A stretch of DNA of 64,000 bases from Tagaea sp. (GTDB lineage Bacteria > Pseudomonadota > Alphaproteobacteria > CACIAM-22H2), in the NCBI GenBank assembly GCA_965279525.1, contig CBDIIB010000004.1, positions 1,152,001 to 1,216,000 on the forward strand. Direction: 5' to 3'. Shown here piece by piece: positions 32,010 through 40,239 of the stretch. How positions within the stretch are numbered: the stretch's first letter is position 1; each line of letters begins with the position of its first letter. The notes under the pieces are model-generated. The model was not told the DNA's origin. It saw nothing but the letters and a program-made list of their open reading frames with translations, and searched no databases. The translations under genes were made by a program, and so were the position numbers.

Positions 32010-33257
32010 ATGAGCAAAGGCAAGCACCAGTCCGGCCGCGGCGGTTACGGCACTTCACGCGGCGGCAGGGACGGCGAACGGGGTGACAAGCCCGGCGCCA
32101 AGCGCGGGCCGAACTCGGGCCAGAAGCCCGGTTCCAAAGGCGGATTCGGCGCCAAGCCGGCCCGCGGACCGCGCCCCGAGCGCTTCGAGAAATCCGACCG
32201 GCCGGCCCGGCCGGAACGCTTCGGCAAGCCCGAGCGCCCCGCCCGTCCCGAACGTCCGGCGCGGCCCGAGCGTTTCGGCAAGCCCGAACGCCCCGCCCGC
32301 CCCGAACGTTTCGGCAAGCCCGAGCGCTTCGGCAAGTCCGAGCGTCCCGCCCGCCCCGAACGCTTTGGCAAACAGGAGCGTTTCGGCAAGCCCGACCGTC
32401 CGTTCCGCCCCGAGCGCCCCGCCCGTCCGCCGCGCGAAGTCCGCCCGGAACCCGTCGAACGCGTCCATCGCCCGACCCCGAGCGAGGCCGGCCGGCCGGA
32501 AGCCGGCGGCAACCGCGTTTGGCTCTACGGCATCCATCCCGTTCTGGCGGCCCTCGCCAACCCGAGCCGCAAGGTGCTGCGCATCGCCGTACTTGGCGAG
32601 ATCGAAGCGACCGTCGGCCCGCGCCTGGCCACGCTGGGCGAAACACACCCGACCGGCCTGCCCGAAATCGAGATCCTCGGCCGCGAACTGCTCGACCGGC
32701 TGCTGCCGCGCGCGGCCGTCCATCAGGGCCTCGCCGCCCTCGTCGAGGGGCTGGAAGATCCCGACCTCGAAGACATCGTGCGCGCGACGGACGGCCACGA
32801 CATCGCGCGCGTCGTGGTCCTCGACCAGGTCACCGACCCGCACAATATCGGCGCGATCCTGCGTTCCTGCGCCGGTTTCGGTGTCGCCGCCGTGATCCTG
32901 CCCGAGCGCCATTCGCCGGCGGCCACCGCCGTGATGGCGAAGGCCGCATCGGGTGCCTTGGAGCGCGTGCCGTTCGTGCGCGTGGTCAATCTCGCGCGCG
33001 CACTCGACCGGCTCAAATCCGCGGGCTTCTGGTGCGTGGGCCTTGCCGGCGAAGCGCAGACGCCGATCCATCAGGCCGATCTCACCGGCAAGATCGCGCT
33101 CGTCGTGGGTGCCGAAGGCGAAGGCCTGCGCCGGCTGACGCGCGAGCGTTGCGACCTGCTCGTGCGCATCCCGATGGAAAAAGGCGTGGAAAGCCTCAAC
33201 GTGTCGAACGCCGCGGCGATCGCCCTCTACGAATTGGCACGCCGCACGACCGCTTAG
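32010..33257 (+). CDS. rlmB: 23S rRNA (G2251-2'-O)-methyltransferase RlmB/TrmH family with long repetitive N-terminal extension
   Basis: LYGIHPV, HQG, LDQVTDPHNIGAILRS, GAEGEGLRRL, VESLNVSNAA SPOUT motifs; divergent from tRNA-Tyr. Confidence 0.93.
   Translation: MSKGKHQSGRGGYGTSRGGRDGERGDKPGAKRGPNSGQKPGSKGGFGAKPARGPRPERFEKSDRPARPERFGKPERPARPERPARPERFGKPERPARPERFGKPERFGKSERPARPERFGKQERFGKPDRPFRPERPARPPREVRPEPVERVHRPTPSEAGRPEAGGNRVWLYGIHPVLAALANPSRKVLRIAVLGEIEATVGPRLATLGETHPTGLPEIEILGRELLDRLLPRAAVHQGLAALVEGLEDPDLEDIVRATDGHDIARVVVLDQVTDPHNIGAILRSCAGFGVAAVILPERHSPAATAVMAKAASGALERVPFVRVVNLARALDRLKSAGFWCVGLAGEAQTPIHQADLTGKIALVVGAEGEGLRRLTRERCDLLVRIPMEKGVESLNVSNAAAIALYELARRTTA
32175..32426 (+). repeat. 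In-frame 18-bp tandem repeat, 14 hexapeptide units (PERFGK/PERPAR)
   Basis: Read directly: PERFEK SDRPAR PERFGK PERPAR PERPAR PERFGK PERPAR PERFGK PERFGK SERPAR PERFGK QERFGK PDRPFR PERPAR. Confidence 0.95.
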
Positions 33258-33802
33258 CGCCGCAACGCGCCTTCGACGTATTTCCTGAAATGCGCAGGCT
33301 CGGGCGTGACATAGCCCACGAGCTTGGCTTCCTCATCCCAGCGGCGCAGGCGCAGCGCGTCCTTGGCGAAGCGCTTGGCCGCGAAACGGTCGGCCTCCGC
33401 CTTCGACATCGGCCCGCCCTGCAGCTTCAGCGACAGCACCGAGGCATCCGACAGCCGCTCGGCATAGCCCGGTTCGACCGCGACGAGATAGCGCTTGGCA
33501 TCGACATGCAGCGCCACCGGCCCGACGACGTCCTCGCCGAAATGGCGCAGCAGGAACGCGGCCCCCACCGCCTCGTGCCTTCCGTCGACGCCCTTGTCGG
33601 CGATGTCCTCGCCAAGCCCGTGCAGCAGGTGCCCGACGTCGTGCAGCAAAGCCGCCGCGACGAGGGCGGGGCTCGCGCCTTCCTTTTCGGCGAGCCATGC
33701 GGCCTGCAGCGCATGCTCGCGCTGGCTGATGCCCTCGCCGTAGCCGGCGTGGCCGGCGGGCTGGTCGAAGACGGCGATGAGGCGGTCGACGATGTCGGTC
33801 AT
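33254..33802 (-). CDS. PhnZ/TmpB-like HD-domain diiron oxygenase (phosphonate degradation family)
   Basis: YGEGISQREHALQ, ALLHDVGH, HEAVG, LHVDAKRYL, SLKLQGGPM, LRRWDEEAK. Confidence 0.85.
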   Translation of the reverse strand: MTDIVDRLIAVFDQPAGHAGYGEGISQREHALQAAWLAEKEGASPALVAAALLHDVGHLLHGLGEDIADKGVDGRHEAVGAAFLLRHFGEDVVGPVALHVDAKRYLVAVEPGYAERLSDASVLSLKLQGGPMSKAEADRFAAKRFAKDALRLRRWDEEAKLVGYVTPEPAHFRKYVEGALRR

Positions 33803-33851
33803 GGGCGCTAGTCTATCAGCCAAGAAGCGGACGCGACTAGGGAGAGGCGCC

Positions 33852-34655
33852 ATGCAACTCACGCCAGCACAGGTCGAGGCGTACGACCGCGATGGCTACG
33901 TCTTCATCGAGAACGTCTTCTCGAAGCGCGAGATCGACACGCTGACCGGCGAACTGCCGGCCGCGTTCGCGCAAAAGCGCGAAGAAGTCGTGCGCGAGAA
34001 AGGCTCGGATGCGCCCCGCTCGGCCTTCTATCTGCAGACCTGGAACCCGGTCTACGAAGCGCTGGCGCGCCATCCGCGCCTGCTGAAGCCCGGCATGCAG
34101 CTGCTGGGTTCGGACCGGCTCTACATGCACCAGTTCAAGGTGAACGCGAAGGCGGCGTTCGACGGCGCGGTGTGGCAGTGGCATCAGGACTACGCGACGT
34201 GGAAGGCCGACGACGACATGCCGGAGCCCAACGCGTTCAACATCGCGCTGTTTCTGGCCGACGCGAACGAGTTCAACGGCCCCTTGATGTTCATCCCCGG
34301 CAGCCACAAGCGCGGCGCCATCCAGTCGAGCTGGGACACGACGACGACTTCCTATCCGTTGTGGACCATCGACAACGACACGGTGACGAAGCTCGTCGAG
34401 CGCGGCGGCATCGTGGCACCCAAGGGGCCGGCGGGCAGCGTGCTGATCTTCAATTCGTGCCTCGTGCACGCGTCGGGCTCGAACCTCACGCCGTGGTCGC
34501 GCTGGATCGTGTATCTCTCGATCAACCGCTGCGACAACGCGATCCGGCGGTTCAGGCGCCCGGCGTGGATCGCCAACCGCGACTTCGCGCCGATCGAGCC
34601 GCTGGCCGACGACTGCCTGGCGAAGTTCGCGAAGGACGCAAGGGCGGCCGAGTAG
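33852..34655 (+). CDS. Fe(II)/2-oxoglutarate dioxygenase, PhyH/EctD-like
   Basis: WQWHQDY (HxD), NGPLMFIPGSH, LVHASGSN...R; GGAGAGG RBS. Confidence 0.88.
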   Translation: MQLTPAQVEAYDRDGYVFIENVFSKREIDTLTGELPAAFAQKREEVVREKGSDAPRSAFYLQTWNPVYEALARHPRLLKPGMQLLGSDRLYMHQFKVNAKAAFDGAVWQWHQDYATWKADDDMPEPNAFNIALFLADANEFNGPLMFIPGSHKRGAIQSSWDTTTTSYPLWTIDNDTVTKLVERGGIVAPKGPAGSVLIFNSCLVHASGSNLTPWSRWIVYLSINRCDNAIRRFRRPAWIANRDFAPIEPLADDCLAKFAKDARAAE

Positions 34656-34665
34656 TTTCCAGTCT

Positions 34666-35550
34666 TTACGACGCCGCGAAGTTCGCCCGCATCCACGCGA
34701 CGAGCGGGTCGGCCGCCGGCAGGAAGGCCGAGTTGTGGTCGCCCTCGGGCTCGGCATAGACGCTCAGCGGGTTGCGCGGCATGGACTCGAACGTGCGCCG
34801 CTTGGCGTTGGGCGTGGGATCGCGCGTGCCCGACGTCCAGAACACCGGCAGGCGCGTGGCGGCCAACGCCGCCTTCACGCTCGGGAAGCGCGCCGGATCG
34901 TGGAACGACAGGAACACCTCGGGCGTCGTCGTGTAGCTTTCCTCGACGAAGGATTCGCCGACCGCGTTCTGCCCGCCGAAACGCACCGGCACGCGCCCCT
35001 GCCCCGCCGCCTCGAGTTGCTTCGCCCGGTCGATCTCGGGCTGGACGCGCTTCCAGAAAATGCCGGACGGCGGGATCAGGTCGAGCAGGCCGCCGGGATT
35101 GAGGAACGCCTTGCCGACCACGACGGGCGGCGGATCGGCCGGCCGCCACGTCATCGCGAAGGTGGCGCCGAGGCTCAAACCCCCGACCACGACCTTGCGG
35201 CCCGCGGCCGCCGCAAGCGCCACGAGCGCGTCGACCGCGGCATTGGCATCGGCGACGGTGCCGTTCCACGCCCGGCTCCACGGCATCGCCGGAAGGTAAA
35301 CAGTCGTTCCGGACGCGGCGACGCGCTCGGCGAAATTGCGCATCAGCGGCGAACGCGGGCTGCCGTTCTTGCCGTGCAGCAAGACGAGCGCCAGATTGCC
35401 GTTCGCCGAAAGCTCGTCGAACTCGACGCGCCAGCCGGTCGATGCCGCAAGCGACTGCGCCGCCGGGGCCGGCCCCTGGGCGCGCGCGGCCGGAACGGCG
35501 CCGGCCGCCGCCATCAATCCCCCCAGAAATGCCCGCCGGTCCACGACCAT
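34666..35550 (-). CDS. Tat-exported alpha/beta hydrolase
   Basis: DRRAFLG twin-arginine signal; LLHGKNG, GLSLG nucleophile, GTRD, GDH. Confidence 0.8.
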   Translation of the reverse strand: MVVDRRAFLGGLMAAAGAVPAARAQGPAPAAQSLAASTGWRVEFDELSANGNLALVLLHGKNGSPRSPLMRNFAERVAASGTTVYLPAMPWSRAWNGTVADANAAVDALVALAAAAGRKVVVGGLSLGATFAMTWRPADPPPVVVGKAFLNPGGLLDLIPPSGIFWKRVQPEIDRAKQLEAAGQGRVPVRFGGQNAVGESFVEESYTTTPEVFLSFHDPARFPSVKAALAATRLPVFWTSGTRDPTPNAKRRTFESMPRNPLSVYAEPEGDHNSAFLPAADPLVAWMRANFAAS

Positions 35551-35588
35551 GCAAACCCCTTCAAACCGCAAAACATTGGGTTACTACT

Positions 35589-35602
35589 GGTTACCGGTAA
35601 CC
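35589..35602. promoter_or_regulatory. Perfect 14-bp palindrome GGTTACCGGTAACC, putative operator
   Basis: Seen directly in the AT-rich divergent intergenic region. Confidence 0.5.
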
Positions 35603-35752
35603 TATTTATCCCTTTGAAGTTCAAAGGTTGTTACTGCAACGACACTTCCTGCAACCTTTGTGACGCCTCACCGAATTCTTCCCGAAACACCGTCGCAAAC
35701 TTGTTCCTATAATAGGTAATTTAGCCGTTTTGTCAAGATCGAATTTCGTTTG

Positions 35753-35802
35753 AAATGTATGCTGTTTCCGGTTGTGTTCTTCTTTGATACAGTCTTTGGA
35801 TG
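35753..35802 (+). repeat. Conserved 50-bp upstream element, copy 1 (ends in start ATG)
   Basis: 44/50 identical to 37125-37174 in ungapped manual alignment. Confidence 0.9.
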
Positions 35803-36429
35803 AATAATGTTCTCATCTGGATCGGGCTGATCCTTGCCGTCGTTTCAGGCGGCAGCACGGCACGCGCCGATCCGCTCTGCGCGCTCGGCTGGATTTGCGA
35901 AACGGCGACAGAATTCGAGCTTCTAAATCCTTTGGTTGAGCATGGAGCCACAAGCCCGACCTGCCACCTGCGTCAGATCGCCGTCCTGCGGCAACAGAAG
36001 CTCGGGTTCTGGTTAGTCACGAGCGCGTATCGACTTGGATCCACTGTCGAGCTCTCGTTTGTCGTCGGCCTTTTTCAGGCAAACCCGGATGGGTCGACCG
36101 GGAAAGTCGCGGTACGTACTGCGCGGCTGCTATCCGCAGACAGGGTCATCGACACGGCAGATTGGGCACAGACGATGGATCCGGAGAGCGGCATGGTGTC
36201 GCTCTCGCAATACGGCACCGATATCTCGGATCCGCTTGCGCACGCAGCGTTGGCGGTTGCGTCAGGGGCGCGCTACGGCGCCCTGGTCGAAACCGAATCT
36301 GGCCGGCGGTTTCAGCTCGAAATCGAGATAGGCACGCGAAAAGACGCCAGCAAGCTGGCTATTCGTGCGTTTCGCGCGTGTGTGGAGCGCGACAGACTCT
36401 CCCCGACTGCTCCGAAAGTCGCCGAGTAG
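35800..36429 (+). CDS. Exported hypothetical protein, 4-Cys family, type A
   Basis: Signal peptide ending ARA; CALGWIC, RLLSADRVIDTADW, AIRAFRAC; paralog of 37172-37774. Confidence 0.8.
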   Translation: MNNVLIWIGLILAVVSGGSTARADPLCALGWICETATEFELLNPLVEHGATSPTCHLRQIAVLRQQKLGFWLVTSAYRLGSTVELSFVVGLFQANPDGSTGKVAVRTARLLSADRVIDTADWAQTMDPESGMVSLSQYGTDISDPLAHAALAVASGARYGALVETESGRRFQLEIEIGTRKDASKLAIRAFRACVERDRLSPTAPKVAE

Positions 36430-36432
36430 ACG

Positions 36433-37059
36433 ATGCATTCGACACGTTTTCAAATCAGATGGACGCTGGCGCTAATGCTGGCGCTTGCGAACATCGCGCA
36501 TGCCGACATGACCGAGACCTGCCGCGCCGGCCATGTCTGCGTTGCCGCGAGCGGATATGAGAACATGCGCGCCGGCAAGCCCGACGGTGGCAGCTACGGA
36601 TGCGGATTCCGGTATGGTGCGCGCGATGACAAAACCGGTCGCACGCTCTATGTCGCACTCGTCGGCGGGGAGGGCGACATCCTGCCCTATCTCATCGTTG
36701 AAATGCACATGCGCGAACCGATCCCGGACAGCGAAAAGACAAAACTTCTTACGCCTCGCGCCGGATGGATCTACACGGCCGATCAGACGATCCTGACAAA
36801 AGACTGGAACCTGACAGTCCGCGACCAGTTGCAGGTATCGCGAACAGACATCCTTCCCGAAAACCGCGGCACCATCAGCCAAATGGCGGAATTGCTGGGC
36901 GCTCTTCCCCACACCATCTTGGTCGAGATCACGGAAGGAACTTACATCCGCTATTTCGTCGCGCCCCAATCCGACGGACGTCGTGCCGCCGCGGAGTTCG
37001 TCGCGTGCGTCGATGAGATCCACCAGAGCGTGAAGTCCGTCACGCCAGTGCTGCGATAG
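36433..37059 (+). CDS. Exported hypothetical protein, 4-Cys family, type B
   Basis: Signal peptide ending AHA; CRAGHVC, GEGDILPY, RTDILPENR, AEFVAC; paralog of 37786-38382. Confidence 0.8.
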   Translation: MHSTRFQIRWTLALMLALANIAHADMTETCRAGHVCVAASGYENMRAGKPDGGSYGCGFRYGARDDKTGRTLYVALVGGEGDILPYLIVEMHMREPIPDSEKTKLLTPRAGWIYTADQTILTKDWNLTVRDQLQVSRTDILPENRGTISQMAELLGALPHTILVEITEGTYIRYFVAPQSDGRRAAAEFVACVDEIHQSVKSVTPVLR

Positions 37060-37124
37060 AATGCGATGGCGCGCAGATCCGGTCATCCGCGAGGACTGGC
37101 ATGCCGTTGCGACCAAGCCAGCTT

Positions 37125-37174
37125 AAATGTATGCCTTTTCTGGTTGTGTTCTTATATGATACAGTCTGTGGATG
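37125..37174 (+). repeat. Conserved 50-bp upstream element, copy 2
   Basis: 44/50 identical to copy 1; contains TATGAT -10-like hexamer at 37155-37160. Confidence 0.9.
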
Positions 37175-37774
37175 CGCAAAGTTCTTCTTCCCGTCGTCCT
37201 TGCCGTCGTCGCGGTTTCAGCCGTGCCGGCAGCCGCCCAATCGGCCCCCTTCTGTCCGGAGGGCTGGGCCTGCGGTTCGCCTGACGGACATCGCGCCGAG
37301 ACGCGCCAGGCCACCGGCCACCGCGACGCCTGCCTGATCCACCACGCGCTGACGACGAGTGACGGTGCATGGCAGATGATGACGATCCTCTTCTCGACCG
37401 ACTCGACACGAGACGTCGATATGGGCTTCGCGGTGACCCTTCTGGAATCCGCCACGCCCGGCAAAGACTACCGCCAGATACCGCTGCGTTCGATCCGGCT
37501 GCTGAGCGCGGATCGCCGGCTCGACACGCGCGAATGGCGGGTCACTGGCGCCGGCACGACCCGGACGATCGTGCGCGTGCCGGTCATGGAAGGTGTCGAG
37601 AAGGCGGTCGGCGCGTCGATCGCGATCGCGACGGGTGCGGCCTATGGCGTGCTCGCCGAAACGACGGACGGCAGGCGCGTGCGCATTGAGTCAGCGGCGA
37701 CTGCGCGCGTGCCGACCGCGATCCGGGCGTTCCAGTCCTGTATCGAGAACCGCAGCAAGCCCGCCGGCAACTAG
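37172..37774 (+). CDS. Exported hypothetical protein, 4-Cys family, type A'
   Basis: Signal peptide; CPEGWAC, RLLSADRRLDTREW, AIATGAAYG, ETTDGRR, AIRAFQSC. Confidence 0.82.
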   Translation: MRKVLLPVVLAVVAVSAVPAAAQSAPFCPEGWACGSPDGHRAETRQATGHRDACLIHHALTTSDGAWQMMTILFSTDSTRDVDMGFAVTLLESATPGKDYRQIPLRSIRLLSADRRLDTREWRVTGAGTTRTIVRVPVMEGVEKAVGASIAIATGAAYGVLAETTDGRRVRIESAATARVPTAIRAFQSCIENRSKPAGN

Positions 37775-37785
37775 GAGAAAGTGCG

Positions 37786-38382
37786 ATGCGAATAGCCCCA
37801 GCGGCCTTGGTCGTCGCAATGCCCTTCCTGCTGGCCGCCTGCGCGCAGCCAGCCGAGGAAAGAGGTTGCGGCGACCATATCTGCACGAGCACCGAAGGCC
37901 ACAAGCTCGTCGAGTACCGGAAGGACGGCGAATTGATCGACTGCCGCATCGAGCACATTGCCCGTGCGCTCGACGCTCCCTATGGCTTCGTCGTCGTCGC
38001 GGCTGCCGGCGAGGGCACGATTCTCCCTTACATGCGGATCGTGGTGCGCGGGGTCCACGTCACGCCGGTCGGTCAACCGAATGAAATTCTAGCCCTTCGT
38101 TCGGTCCGGCTGCGCGGAGCTGAGTCGAAGTTCGATACCCGGGATTGGCAGTCGCATGTGCGGGACGGCGCCGTCTGGCTGCGGACCGACGTACTTCCAG
38201 AAGACCGGTCGCCGCTCGCCACGCTCGCCGCCATCGCCACGAGCGAAACCTACGCCATGCACGTCGAGACTGGAGACGGGCGGAAAGTGCCCGTCGGCGT
38301 CGCCCAACTCCGCCCGACCGGCGATATCGCCAAGCGCTTCCTTGCCTGCACCGAGGAACTGCGCAAGGCCGTCGGCGGCTAA
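37786..38382 (+). CDS. Putative lipoprotein, 4-Cys family, type B'
   Basis: Lipobox LAAC; CGDHIC, GEGTILPY, RTDVLPEDR, KRFLAC; AGGAG RBS. Confidence 0.82.
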   Translation: MRIAPAALVVAMPFLLAACAQPAEERGCGDHICTSTEGHKLVEYRKDGELIDCRIEHIARALDAPYGFVVVAAAGEGTILPYMRIVVRGVHVTPVGQPNEILALRSVRLRGAESKFDTRDWQSHVRDGAVWLRTDVLPEDRSPLATLAAIATSETYAMHVETGDGRKVPVGVAQLRPTGDIAKRFLACTEELRKAVGG

Positions 38383-38460
38383 GACCGCCCGCAGGCATGC
38401 TTGATCTCGATCCTTCCGAATTCGTCTCCGCGCGCGATGCGCCCCGCCCAGCATCTCAAA

Positions 38461-38570
38461 AACTGTATGCCGTATTCGACGGTCGGCCCTTTTGATAATT
38501 TTTTCGGAAGAACCGCGTTGGCAGCGGCTGCCTTGCCGTCCTCACGAACGGCGCAATCGCCCGAGGATGA
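38461..38570 (+). pseudogene. Decayed third repeat unit: upstream element plus remnant of a type-A signal-peptide coding region
   Basis: 31/50 ungapped match to copy 1 with TGTATGC and TGATA at identical spacing; ATG replaced by AAG; in-frame CTT GCC GTC (LAV) shared with both type-A genes; TGA at 38568-38570. Confidence 0.6.
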
Positions 38571-38573
38571 TGC

Positions 38574-39221
38574 ATGCCCCCAGCGAAGCACCCGCACGAC
38601 CCTCACTACCACGCACACGGCCCCGACGCCGGCACGCACCTGTCGGACGTCGAGCTCCGGGTGCGCGCCCTCGAAAGCGTGCTCGTCGAGAAAGGCTATG
38701 TCGTTCCGCAAGTCCTCGACGATCTGGTCGAGACCTATGAAAAGAAGATCGGTCCGCGCAACGGCGCGCATGTCGTCGCGAAGGCGTGGACGGACCCGGC
38801 CTATCGCGAATGGCTGCTCGCCGACGCCACGGCCGCGATCGCTTCGCTGGGCTATCCGGGCGGGCAGGCCATGGTTGCCGTCGCGAACGGCCCGGACCAG
38901 CACAACCTCATCGTCTGCACACTCTGCTCCTGCTATCCGTGGCCGGTCCTGGGGCTGCCGCCCGTCTGGTACAAGTCGGCGCCCTACCGGTCGCGCGCCG
39001 TCATCGATCCGCGCGGCGTGCTGGCGGATTTCGGGCTCGTCCTGCCGCCGACGACGCGGATCAAGGTGTGGGATTCGACCGCCGAGATCCGCTATTTCGT
39101 GCTTCCCGAAAGTCCTCCCGGGACCGGCGGAATGGACGAAGCCGCACTCGCCAAACTCGTGACACGCGACAGCCTGATCGGCGTCGGCCTGCCGCTCGCA
39201 CCTGAACGGGCCGCGTCGTGA
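38574..39221 (+). CDS. nthA: Cobalt-type nitrile hydratase alpha subunit
   Basis: VCTLCSCY metal motif (Thr indicates Co type), [18 protein letters not shown]. Confidence 0.96.
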
Positions 39222-39886
39222 ACGGTGCTGCCGACATGGGCGGCATGATGGGGTTCGGTCCCGTCGTGCCTGACGCCGAGACCGATCCGCTTTTCCACGC
39301 GGAATGGGAACGCCGCGTCTTCGCGATGGCGATCGGGATGGCGCGAACCGGGGCCTGGAACGTCGACATGTCGCGTGCCGCGCGCGAAAGCCTGCCGCCG
39401 GTGCAATACCTGTCGATCACCTATTTCGAGATCTGGCTTTGCGCCCTCGAAAAACTGCTGGCGGAACGAAACCTCGTCCAGGCCGACGAGATCGCCGCCG
39501 GCCAAGCCCTGCATCCGCCGGGCCGCGTCCCGCGCATCGGCAAGCCCGAGGAGGTGGCGGCGATCCTCGGCAAGGGCAAGCCCGGCACGATCCGCGAGGC
39601 GGCCGCACCGGCGCGCTTCGCGATCGGCAACCGGGTGCGGATGCGCAACATGCATCCGGCGACGCACACGCGCCTGCCCCGCTACGTGCGCGGGCGCCTG
39701 GGCGTCGTCGAACTCGTTCACGGCGTACACGTGTTTCCGGACAGCAACGCGCTGGGCCGGGGCGAAGCACCGCAGTGGCTCTACACCGTGCGCTTCGCCG
39801 GGACCGAATTGTGGGGTGCGGATGCCGATCAGGCGCTCGCCGTTTCGGTCGAGGCATGGGAGAGCTATCTGGAGGTGCCGGCATGA
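39218..39886 (+). CDS. nthB: Nitrile hydratase beta subunit
   Basis: GTG start; [37 protein letters not shown]. Confidence 0.95.
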
Positions 39887-40239
39887 GCCGCCGATCCGGC
39901 ACCCCCGCGCTGCCCGACCTGCCTTGCGATGCGGAAGGCCCCGTCTTCCGGGCGCCGTGGGAGGCGCAGGCCTTCGCGATGGCGGTGGCTCTCCAGCAGA
40001 AGGGCCTGTTCACCTGGCCCGAATGGGCGGACGCGCTGTCGGGCGAGATCCGCGCCGCACAGGCCGCCGGCGATCCGGATACCGGCGAGACCTACTATGG
40101 CCATTGGCTGCGGGCGCTGGAACGGCTGGTCGTCGAGAAAGGTGCCGCGACGCCCGAGCGGCTCGCCGAACGCGCGGCCGCCTGGGATCACGCGGCACGC
40201 CACACGCCGCATGGCCAGCCGATCGTGCCGCCCGCCTGA
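39883..40239 (+). CDS. Nitrile hydratase accessory/activator protein (P14K-like)
   Basis: ATGA overlap with nthB; GPVFRAPWEAQAFA, FTWPEW, YYGHWLRALE. Confidence 0.92.
   Translation: MSRRSGTPALPDLPCDAEGPVFRAPWEAQAFAMAVALQQKGLFTWPEWADALSGEIRAAQAAGDPDTGETYYGHWLRALERLVVEKGAATPERLAERAAAWDHAARHTPHGQPIVPPA

Follow-up and report, generated by a model that had tools for sequence, protein, structure and literature searches.

A very narrow family of exported proteins with a predicted IalB/MotY-N-like fold, a predicted heterodimer and a candidate promoter element of its own in Tagaea sp.

What do four small exported proteins do that are encoded side by side in the chromosome of a Tagaea species and match no known protein family? 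The question is raised by positions 35753-38570 of a 64,000-nucleotide stretch of this genome (contig CBDIIB010000004.1, positions 1,152,001 to 1,216,000; the window), where an earlier reading of the DNA letters, here called the original prediction, had described a tandem array of cassettes, each with an A-type and a B-type gene of an exported family with four cysteines. Our analysis identifies a new and very narrow sequence family which, judged from predicted models, probably belongs to an IalB/MotY-N-like class of exported folds, with a predicted A-B heterodimer and a putative private promoter element. The genome that contains the window (4.35 Mb, 97% complete) is denoted G000 and the other G numbers refer to relatives.

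The four open reading frames (ORFs) lie where they had been placed, and they form 2 two-gene units, A1-B1 and A2-B2, on the + strand of the array (Table 1). Their mutual homology is evident from pairwise BLASTP comparisons (E values of 6e-17 for A1/A2, 8e-20 for B1/B2, 2e-13 for A2/B2 and 2e-3 for A1/B1) and from a family alignment of 16 members, which comprises the four window proteins, ten from six other genomes and two metagenomic sequences. Seven columns of this alignment are invariant (C28, C34, C54, T119, W122, F187 and C190 in A2 numbering); they correspond to the Cx5C pair, the third cysteine, the T..W motif and the C-terminal F..C of the original description. Inspection by eye finds a signal peptide in all four ORFs, with a positive n-region, a hydrophobic core and ARA, AHA or AAA before the mature end, and the mature protein has about 175 residues. 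The cysteine of the LLAAC lipobox in B2 is absent from the B2 orthologues in G047 and G040. Chance ORFs or pseudogenes were considered and ruled out: the orthologues are conserved, the ratio of nonsynonymous to synonymous divergence (dN/dS) is 0.21-0.47 and the predicted folds are confident, so these are real genes.

That the family lies outside the known libraries, as had been proposed, was borne out by every search. No family match was found for the four window proteins in Pfam or NCBIfam, and no shared family for the 16 members in Pfam at E<=10; the only weak Pfam match, to DUF3551 (E 0.075), covers the signal peptide. PADLOC matched 0 of the 16 members, no PHROGs match had an E value below 0.07, and the best hit of the family profile among the sequences of the PDB (E 0.054) was to a segment of the unrelated MnmC. 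The closest clusters in the ESM Atlas are all nameless, the closest named entries being YfjT (0.90) and VasI (0.88), which we treat as leads only. A 16-sequence profile run against 1,835,955,588 representative proteins returned 24 at E<=1e-3, of which 21 remained at E<=1e-10; one of the 24, a repeat protein covering just the N-terminal 35 profile positions, is regarded as spurious. A word-indexed protein search gave three relatives beyond the query, and a search for related loci gave two with a three-row alignment and none with the B2 protein alone.

Within its own genome the family has exactly four copies, all in the array. The taxonomic family, which as sampled is also the whole of the order, has 49 other genomes. 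Six of them contain these proteins, all among the 20 other genomes of the genus; none of the 29 genomes from 14 other genera does. The carriers form the nearer sub-group of the genus, as judged from the identity of a neighbouring HD-domain protein (80-96%, versus 62-68% in the others). Copy number among the relatives is 0, 1, 2 or 4. The family is thus very small and private to a lineage that forms part of one genus.

AlphaFold models calculated from the family alignments (predicted local distance difference test, pLDDT, in Table 1; predicted TM score 0.79 for each of A2 and B2) show a beta-sandwich of about 11 strands with two helices, following the signal peptide. A Foldseek search of the PDB gave no match at E<=1e-3; MotY (2zf8) was found at E 9.7e-3 with a probability of 0.99 and a TM score of 0.37. 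An exhaustive structural search with both models, in which best Z scores of 7-8 are common for models that have no clear relative, placed the same chain first for both, namely 8z5n_A (chain A of the Vibrio LPHT flagellar ring, residues 23-176 of 270), with Z 8.8, 139 and 136 residues of A2 and B2 aligned and root-mean-square deviations (rmsd) of 3.8 and 3.5, respectively. We take this segment to be the N-terminal domain of MotY. IalB (3dtd_A) was matched by A2 with Z 7.8 (127 residues aligned, rmsd 3.7) and by B2 with Z 7.3 (128 residues, rmsd 3.8), in each case about 90% of its 142 residues. Lower in the ranking are CrdA (Z 6.9 for A2 and 7.5 for B2), Tp34 with Co(II) (4.6 and 5.0) and CopC (4.1-4.2). 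On these models an IalB/MotY-N-like fold class is likely for the family. A literature search on both names found no paper that joins IalB and MotY.

Likeness of fold does not amount to membership of either family. IalB (PF06776; 3dtd is invasion-associated protein B of Bartonella henselae) is likewise exported, alphaproteobacterial, of similar size and endowed with four conserved cysteines. Its cysteine pattern is nevertheless W-x3-C-x9-C...C-x4-C where the present family has C-x5-C...C...C. Of 121 genomes sampled from the class 62 contain IalB, whereas our family is confined to part of one genus, and the A-B pairs with a predicted heterodimer interface that are described below are a feature of our family. 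(That count includes the unpublished genome G089, none of whose sequence was used.) Membership of PF06776 was rejected on that different pattern, on 0 of the 4 window proteins matching at E<=0.1 and 0 of the 16 members at E<=10, and on an hhalign probability of 3.1%. The molecular function of IalB is itself not known (PMC7327166). MotY differs in that it is flagellar, whereas the locus of our family has no link to flagellar genes; sequence identity to 8z5n_A is 9-12%. Membership of MotY as a whole was rejected since its C-terminal part, an OmpA-like peptidoglycan-binding domain, has no counterpart in these single-domain proteins of 198-209 residues, which have no OmpA or other Pfam match.

The original prediction held that A and B work as a pair, and complex prediction agrees. 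A2 (residues 23-200) and B2 (residues 20-198), each supplied with its own subtype alignment, gave interface scores (ipSAE) of 0.78, 0.80 and 0.78, compared with 0.02 for the best control; that mark was attained in 116 of 157 solved complexes and in two of 215 mismatched pairs. At least 77% of the contacts are common to the runs, and the pLDDT of the partners is at least 86. The confident interface is formed in A by residues 26-32 (FCPEGW), 111-120 (LSADRRLDTR), 157-159 (AYG), Arg171 and Glu173, and in B by residues 77-82 (GEGTILPY), 131-139 (the RTDVLPE region) and the C-terminal VGG. It therefore falls on the A- and B-specific motifs that had been singled out beforehand. Mean identity in the interface columns is 0.66 for A versus 0.30 elsewhere (permutation p<1e-4) and 0.60 for B versus 0.32 elsewhere (p=3e-4). 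Such an interface would explain why A and B keep distinct motifs and always travel together with translational coupling, and on the strength of the models the two very probably function together.

Fused relatives bear on both the pair and its cysteines. G047 has a third family gene (locus L017, 8455-9603) with two fused, divergent family domains, which is without a signal peptide and has lost some of the conserved cysteines, and a metagenomic relative of 408 residues, P0023, has the same two-domain build. Two family domains would accordingly appear able to work side by side; such a gene may encode a form of the pair that stays in the cytoplasm, or it may be in decay. Cys28 and Cys190 are lost together in two of the three N-domains of the fused forms, and Cys34 and Cys54 are kept. 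We infer from this joint loss that each protein is probably held by two disulfides, with Cys28 paired to Cys190 and Cys34 to Cys54.

A maximum-likelihood tree of 33 sequences or domains separates the two proposed subtypes as well supported clades, A with 13 rows (support 95/86) and B with 12 rows (99/98). A third clade of eight rows (99/96) unites the two domains of the fused proteins with the genes that stand alone in G044 and G041. The cassette 1 pair groups with the pair of G038 and the cassette 2 pair with those of G047 and G040, and the A and B parts of the tree are congruent. Because each cassette groups with pairs of other species, the array is better described as two old cassette types standing side by side, and the idea that it was amplified by recent tandem duplication has to be given up. 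The lower GC content noticed in the first unit is real: A1 has 0.606 and B1 0.598, compared with 0.682 for A2, 0.658 for B2 and 0.664 for the genome. GC at third codon positions (GC3) is 0.68 and 0.72 in cassette 1 versus 0.83-0.91 in flanking genes, and the G038 counterpart of cassette 1 is also low in GC (0.56).

Between species the family genes share 48-71% amino-acid identity, most flanking genes 82-95% (77-79% for two in G040). Family dN is 0.18-0.42 against 0.04-0.14 in the flanks (3 to 7 times higher) and dS 0.68-1.22 against 0.30-0.54 (about 2 to 3 times). The claim of rapid diversification therefore stands in so far as these genes diverge faster than their neighbours, but the pairwise dN/dS values given above are those of genes under selection of the purifying kind; evolution of the family is fast yet purifying overall. 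The higher dS could reflect old alleles that have moved between species, and part of it may come from weaker codon bias (GC3 of 0.68-0.82 versus 0.83-0.91).

Our attention was also drawn to the sequence that precedes the A genes. The array had been described as three repeat units. Units 1 and 2 hold good, with a direct repeat of 99 nt at 35753 and 37125 (72% identical), at the head of which stands a 47-nt element that ends at the ATG of each A gene. Its 3' part reads TTGATACAGT-CTTTGG-ATG and contains TGnTAnnnT, the form of an extended -10; the A genes are without an upstream Shine-Dalgarno sequence. All six other carrier genomes have the element ahead of their first family gene, and it is conserved before eight A- or single-type genes in seven genomes though the proteins have diverged to about 25% identity. 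In G040 an extra copy stands before a GNAT gene, where its ATG opens an ORF of 12 codons whose stop overlaps the GNAT start (ATGA), an arrangement for which translation from the ATG of the element would be a fitting explanation.

Unit 3 is of another kind, being just a match to the bipartite core of the element, placed before the alpha gene of a nitrile hydratase (NHase). In four genomes (G000, G040, G038 and G031) the NHase alpha gene has retained this NHase-type box, TGTATGCCGTATTCG...TTG(A/G)TA, in front of it, and the box is followed by a normal leader and a Shine-Dalgarno sequence. Since G031 has the box and no A or B gene, we read the third unit as mainly an NHase promoter box, and its earlier interpretation as the relic of a decayed cassette fails. 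A very short relic of another gene may also be present at the adjoining site, where tblastn gave E 6e-4 in a search space of 401 nt; the full third gene is found in G047.

The bipartite sequence is confined to this location. The pattern TGTATGCNNT-N17-19-TKATA occurs three times in the 4.35-Mb genome, always at the array, and a reversed-pattern control 0 times. Across the genus there are 13 matches in eight of 21 genomes, all in the same chromosomal slot (three for the control), and in the other 29 genomes of the order there is one, probably due to chance (controls over all 50 genomes, nine). The 10-nt core TGTATGCCGT alone occurs three times in the genome, compared with five for its reverse, and no wider regulon for this box was found in the own genome, the genus or the order. 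These data suggest that the element serves as a private promoter whose upstream box would bind a predicted factor and which is common to several of the genes carried in the slot; a leaderless start at or beside the A of the ATG would suit it.

Other roles for the element were considered. A riboswitch or leader structure was rejected, as the consensus fold has -4.8 kcal/mol and 0 of 14 pairs are compensatory; Rfam over 35400-38700 gave one match at the level of chance (E 0.12, a hepatitis C virus element). As to an integron, the annotated neighbours, which do not include every ORF of the window, showed no recombinase, and the weakly folding element lies directly before start codons, as a promoter would. 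No terminator-like site was found between B1 and A2 or after B2.

The slot itself has a fixed address. All seven family loci lie between a block of TrmH and HD genes (with PhyH and alpha/beta hydrolase genes in some) and hisS, downstream of a cluster of rpoBC, ribosomal-protein and tuf genes and a TrmH-like gene; the slot adjoins the HD-domain gene and usually a PhyH dioxygenase gene. Its contents vary from species to species (Table 1). The slot NHase of our genome, whose CTLCSC motif we take to mark the cobalt type, is an accessory second copy, found in three of the 20 other species of the genus at 82-83% identity. A core NHase is present in all 21 genomes of the genus, 44-49% identical to the slot copy, our own being at G000:C4:826905-827522 (47%).

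Table 1. Positions in the window of the array, candidate regulatory sites and neighbouring features, with the contents of the slot in individual genomes.
Feature	Position	Strand	Description
Sigma-70-like promoter (predicted)	35709-35736	-	TTGACA-N16-TATTAT, 11/12; points to Tat-signal alpha/beta hydrolase gene 34666-35571
Element copy 1	35753-35799	+	47 nt ending at A1 ATG; TGTATGC box, TTGATACAGT (extended -10-like), GTCTTTGG
A1	35800-36429	+	A-type, 209 aa, Sec-type signal peptide, GC 0.606
B1	36433-37059	+	B-type, 208 aa, signal peptide; start 3 nt past A1 stop
Element copy 2	37125-37171	+	41/47 identical to copy 1 (own count), ends at A2 ATG
A2	37172-37774	+	A-type, 200 aa; AlphaFold pLDDT 86.8
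B2	37786-38382	+	B-type, 198 aa, LLAAC lipobox, upstream AGGAGA Shine-Dalgarno; pLDDT 87.2; predicted partner of A2
Possible 5' remnant of fused-type third gene	38398-38466	+	encodes MLDLDPSEFVSARDAP..., resembles N-terminus of P0023; weak
NHase-type box	38464-38497	+	TGTATGCCGTATTCG-N-TTGATA; shares bipartite core TGTATGCCGT-N18-TTGATA of element
Accessory NHase operon	38574-40239	+	alpha, beta, accessory protein; CTLCSC motif
Slot, G000			alpha/beta hydrolase, A1-B1, A2-B2, NHase
Slot, G047			hydrolase, A-B, third gene with two fused family domains
Slot, G040			A-B, NHase, GNAT
Slot, G038			A-B, NHase
Slot, G029			A-B, then duplicated hisS 3' fragment
Slot, G044 and G041			one gene of third (single) type each
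Slot, G031			NHase only, without A/B genes
Slot, G046			IMP-cyclohydrolase-like gene instead
Slot, G045 and other distant species			unrelated genes

How can these observations be brought together? The reading that we prefer, with modest confidence, is that the array consists of two A-B operons of exported beta-sandwich heterodimers under a private promoter, which provide a non-enzymatic binding module of the envelope. Each protein would be exported by the Sec route, with the B partner lipid-anchored in some lineages. One A and one B would form a heterodimer through the subtype motifs, FCPxGW, LSADRxLDT, AYG and RxE in A and GEGxILPY, RTDxLPE and the C-terminus in B, and the remaining surface would be free to vary. 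The TGnTAcAGT extended -10 of the 47-nt promoter would direct a transcript beginning at the A of the ATG or beside it, producing a leaderless message; the upstream TGTATGCCGT box would bind a putative factor, and the B gene would be translated by coupling to A. The same box would drive the accessory NHase, whose transcript would have its 5' end about 7 nt after TTGATAAT, upstream of the NHase genes, and, in one relative, the GNAT gene. As the box is shared, the genes carried in the slot are probably turned on in concert. The A-B pair would then act in the envelope without catalysis and recognise something variable. Three arguments lead us to regard such a binding module as most likely. Firstly, the fold neighbours bind proteins, the N-terminal domain of MotY being a periplasmic protein-binding domain. 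Secondly, the invariant residues (four cysteines, one threonine, one tryptophan and one phenylalanine) do not look catalytic. Thirdly, the interface is conserved and the rest of the protein variable.

Several considerations weigh against this proposal. The fold matches, with Z scores of 7-9, are of a size that models lacking a clear relative commonly reach, and the hhalign comparison mentioned above, for which 16 IalB domains were collected from other genomes and set against the 16-member family, reached E 0.014 across 41 columns. The dimer represents the confidence of a predictor used with unpaired alignments, and paralogues descended from an ancestral homodimer can score as heterodimers. Predictors also tend to put interfaces on conserved patches, so that our test of interface conservation is not fully independent. 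The single-copy forms in G044 and G041 indicate that an A-B pair is not always needed. As for the promoter, the upstream box of the putative factor is found nowhere else in its own genome, the -35 region of the element is non-canonical and a simple sigma-70 scan did not call the element; expression and start site are predictions from the DNA sequence. The function of a binding module, finally, is deduced from the fold neighbours and from the absence of catalytic-looking invariant residues.

The original prediction had seen in the array a set of immunity or inhibitor cassettes. On such a view the A-B pairs would neutralise a toxin or hydrolase that acts in the periplasm (an effector of the type VI secretion system (T6SS) or of contact-dependent type, a bacteriocin or a lysozyme), as orphan immunity genes in an arms race. 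Known arrays of this kind include T6SS immunity islands and the periplasmic lysozyme inhibitors, with the soluble and lipoprotein pair PliC/MliC. The family resembles them in several respects: the proteins are small, exported and probably bonded by disulfides, B occurs as a lipoprotein or as a soluble protein according to lineage, paralogues stand in tandem in variable number in an accessory slot, and they diverge quickly, with raised dN and dS that would fit old alleles exchanged between species. A conserved interface and a variable remainder would likewise fit a scaffold that presents variable surfaces. Yet no toxin, secretion-system or mobility gene adjoins the family genes at the seven loci, where the neighbours are TrmH-like, HD, PhyH, alpha/beta hydrolase, NHase, GNAT and hisS genes. 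The original prediction had noted no toxin or mobility gene anywhere in the window, which we can uphold for the annotated neighbours, as not every ORF of the 64 kb was annotated. No match to TssC, the family of the T6SS sheath, was found in the own genome (97% complete), and the PADLOC and PHROGs searches were negative. The top 50 structural matches of either model contain no lysozyme-inhibitor or immunity fold, although this is weak evidence. Whole-gene dN/dS is below 0.5, and the higher dS may in part come from weaker codon bias. Orphan immunity arrays differ further from the present family, which has no effector at any locus, no family or fold match, obligate-looking A-B pairs and a private promoter. 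We consider immunity or inhibition improbable, while ranking it ahead of the two explanations that are taken up last.

A bolder version of the binding module, which we hold to be equally improbable, would make of the locus an envelope recognition system of a new kind, outside every known immunity family, in which a conserved core carries hypervariable beta-sheet surfaces, old alleles are exchanged at a hotspot, the leaderless promoter switches the pair on together with scavenging enzymes, and the heterodimer serves in the periplasm or at the surface as a decoy or inhibitor against phage receptor-binding proteins, bacteriocins or effectors.

The neighbouring NHase suggests a different function, that of an accessory factor, i.e. 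a periplasmic helper for its substrate or its cobalt that is switched on with it through the shared box. The accessory NHase operon comes directly after a pair in three of the seven carrier genomes (G000, G040 and G038), it has the same TGTATGCCGT...TTGRTA box with the same spacing, and the lower-ranked fold neighbours CrdA, Tp34 and CopC are periplasmic metal-binding beta-sandwiches. However, four of the seven carrier loci have no slot NHase and G031 has NHase and box with no A or B gene, while every genome of the genus has its other NHase elsewhere, without the box. No histidine, methionine, aspartate or glutamate is invariant in the family; the sole invariant candidate ligands are the four cysteines, and the joint loss of Cys28 and Cys190 in the signal-less fused forms fits disulfides and not a metal site. 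A helper of this sort seems to us very unlikely.

Just as unlikely is a divergent structural part of the envelope of the IalB or MotY-N type, serving growth, the flagellum or another machine: 8z5n_A and IalB do top the structural matches of both models, the best IalB score in the own genome is 19.7 bits, below the Pfam cut-off of 22.1, in a class where 62 of 121 genomes have an IalB, and IalB-domain proteins are periplasmic, with RgsG essential for polar growth in Sinorhizobium meliloti (PMC7327166); a core role nevertheless fits poorly with a family that 14 of the 20 other species of the genus lack, whose copy number changes and whose genes lie amid accessory cargo, and the hhalign result, the Pfam searches, the cysteine pattern and the lack of an OmpA-like second domain all point away from it.

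Some features of the surroundings deserve record. The sigma-70 scan gave one site, the strong minus-strand hydrolase promoter of Table 1, compared with a mean of 0.6 in shuffled sequences; the sequence GTCAAG/ATAGG, upstream of element copy 1, is conserved across species, and this minus-strand promoter would account for its conservation. The intergenic region 35575-35720, much of which is conserved in G041, is rich in perfect palindromes, namely GGTTACCGGTAACC (about 35590), CCTTTGAAGTTCAAAGG (35611-35627) and CCTATAATAGG (about 35707), which are possible operator sites. In G029 (locus L019, 6427-6618) a copy of 64 codons from the 3' end of hisS, 66% identical to residues 410-473, directly follows the B gene, with the intact hisS 1.6 kb beyond; the hisS side of the slot seems to bear the trace of an insertion or recombination here. 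On the other side of the array, at 33254-34655, the window has a gene for an HD-domain protein (202 aa, with a weak MIOX-like Pfam match) and a divergent gene for a PhyH-family dioxygenase, which presumably resemble the PhnZ/PhnY-type pair for oxidative phosphonate cleavage. As called, the two 5' ends have about 86 nt in common, so that one of the genes probably starts further in. The TrmH-like methyltransferase has an N-terminal extension (32010-32500) of repeated ERPARPERFGKP-like units, of low complexity and with a GC content of 0.73-0.75.

Should these proteins prove to be ordinary fillers of the envelope, the interest of the locus would be local only. As it stands, a family with some two dozen representative clusters in the world combines a fold predicted with confidence, a predicted obligate partner, a fixed chromosomal address, variable copy number and a candidate promoter element of its own. 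To solve it would be to learn what a lineage-private exported heterodimer does, and the shared box offers a handle on the signal and the factor that would switch on the accessory cargo of this hotspot, a second NHase included. Solving the family may also illuminate the still unexplained class of IalB/MotY-N-like envelope proteins.

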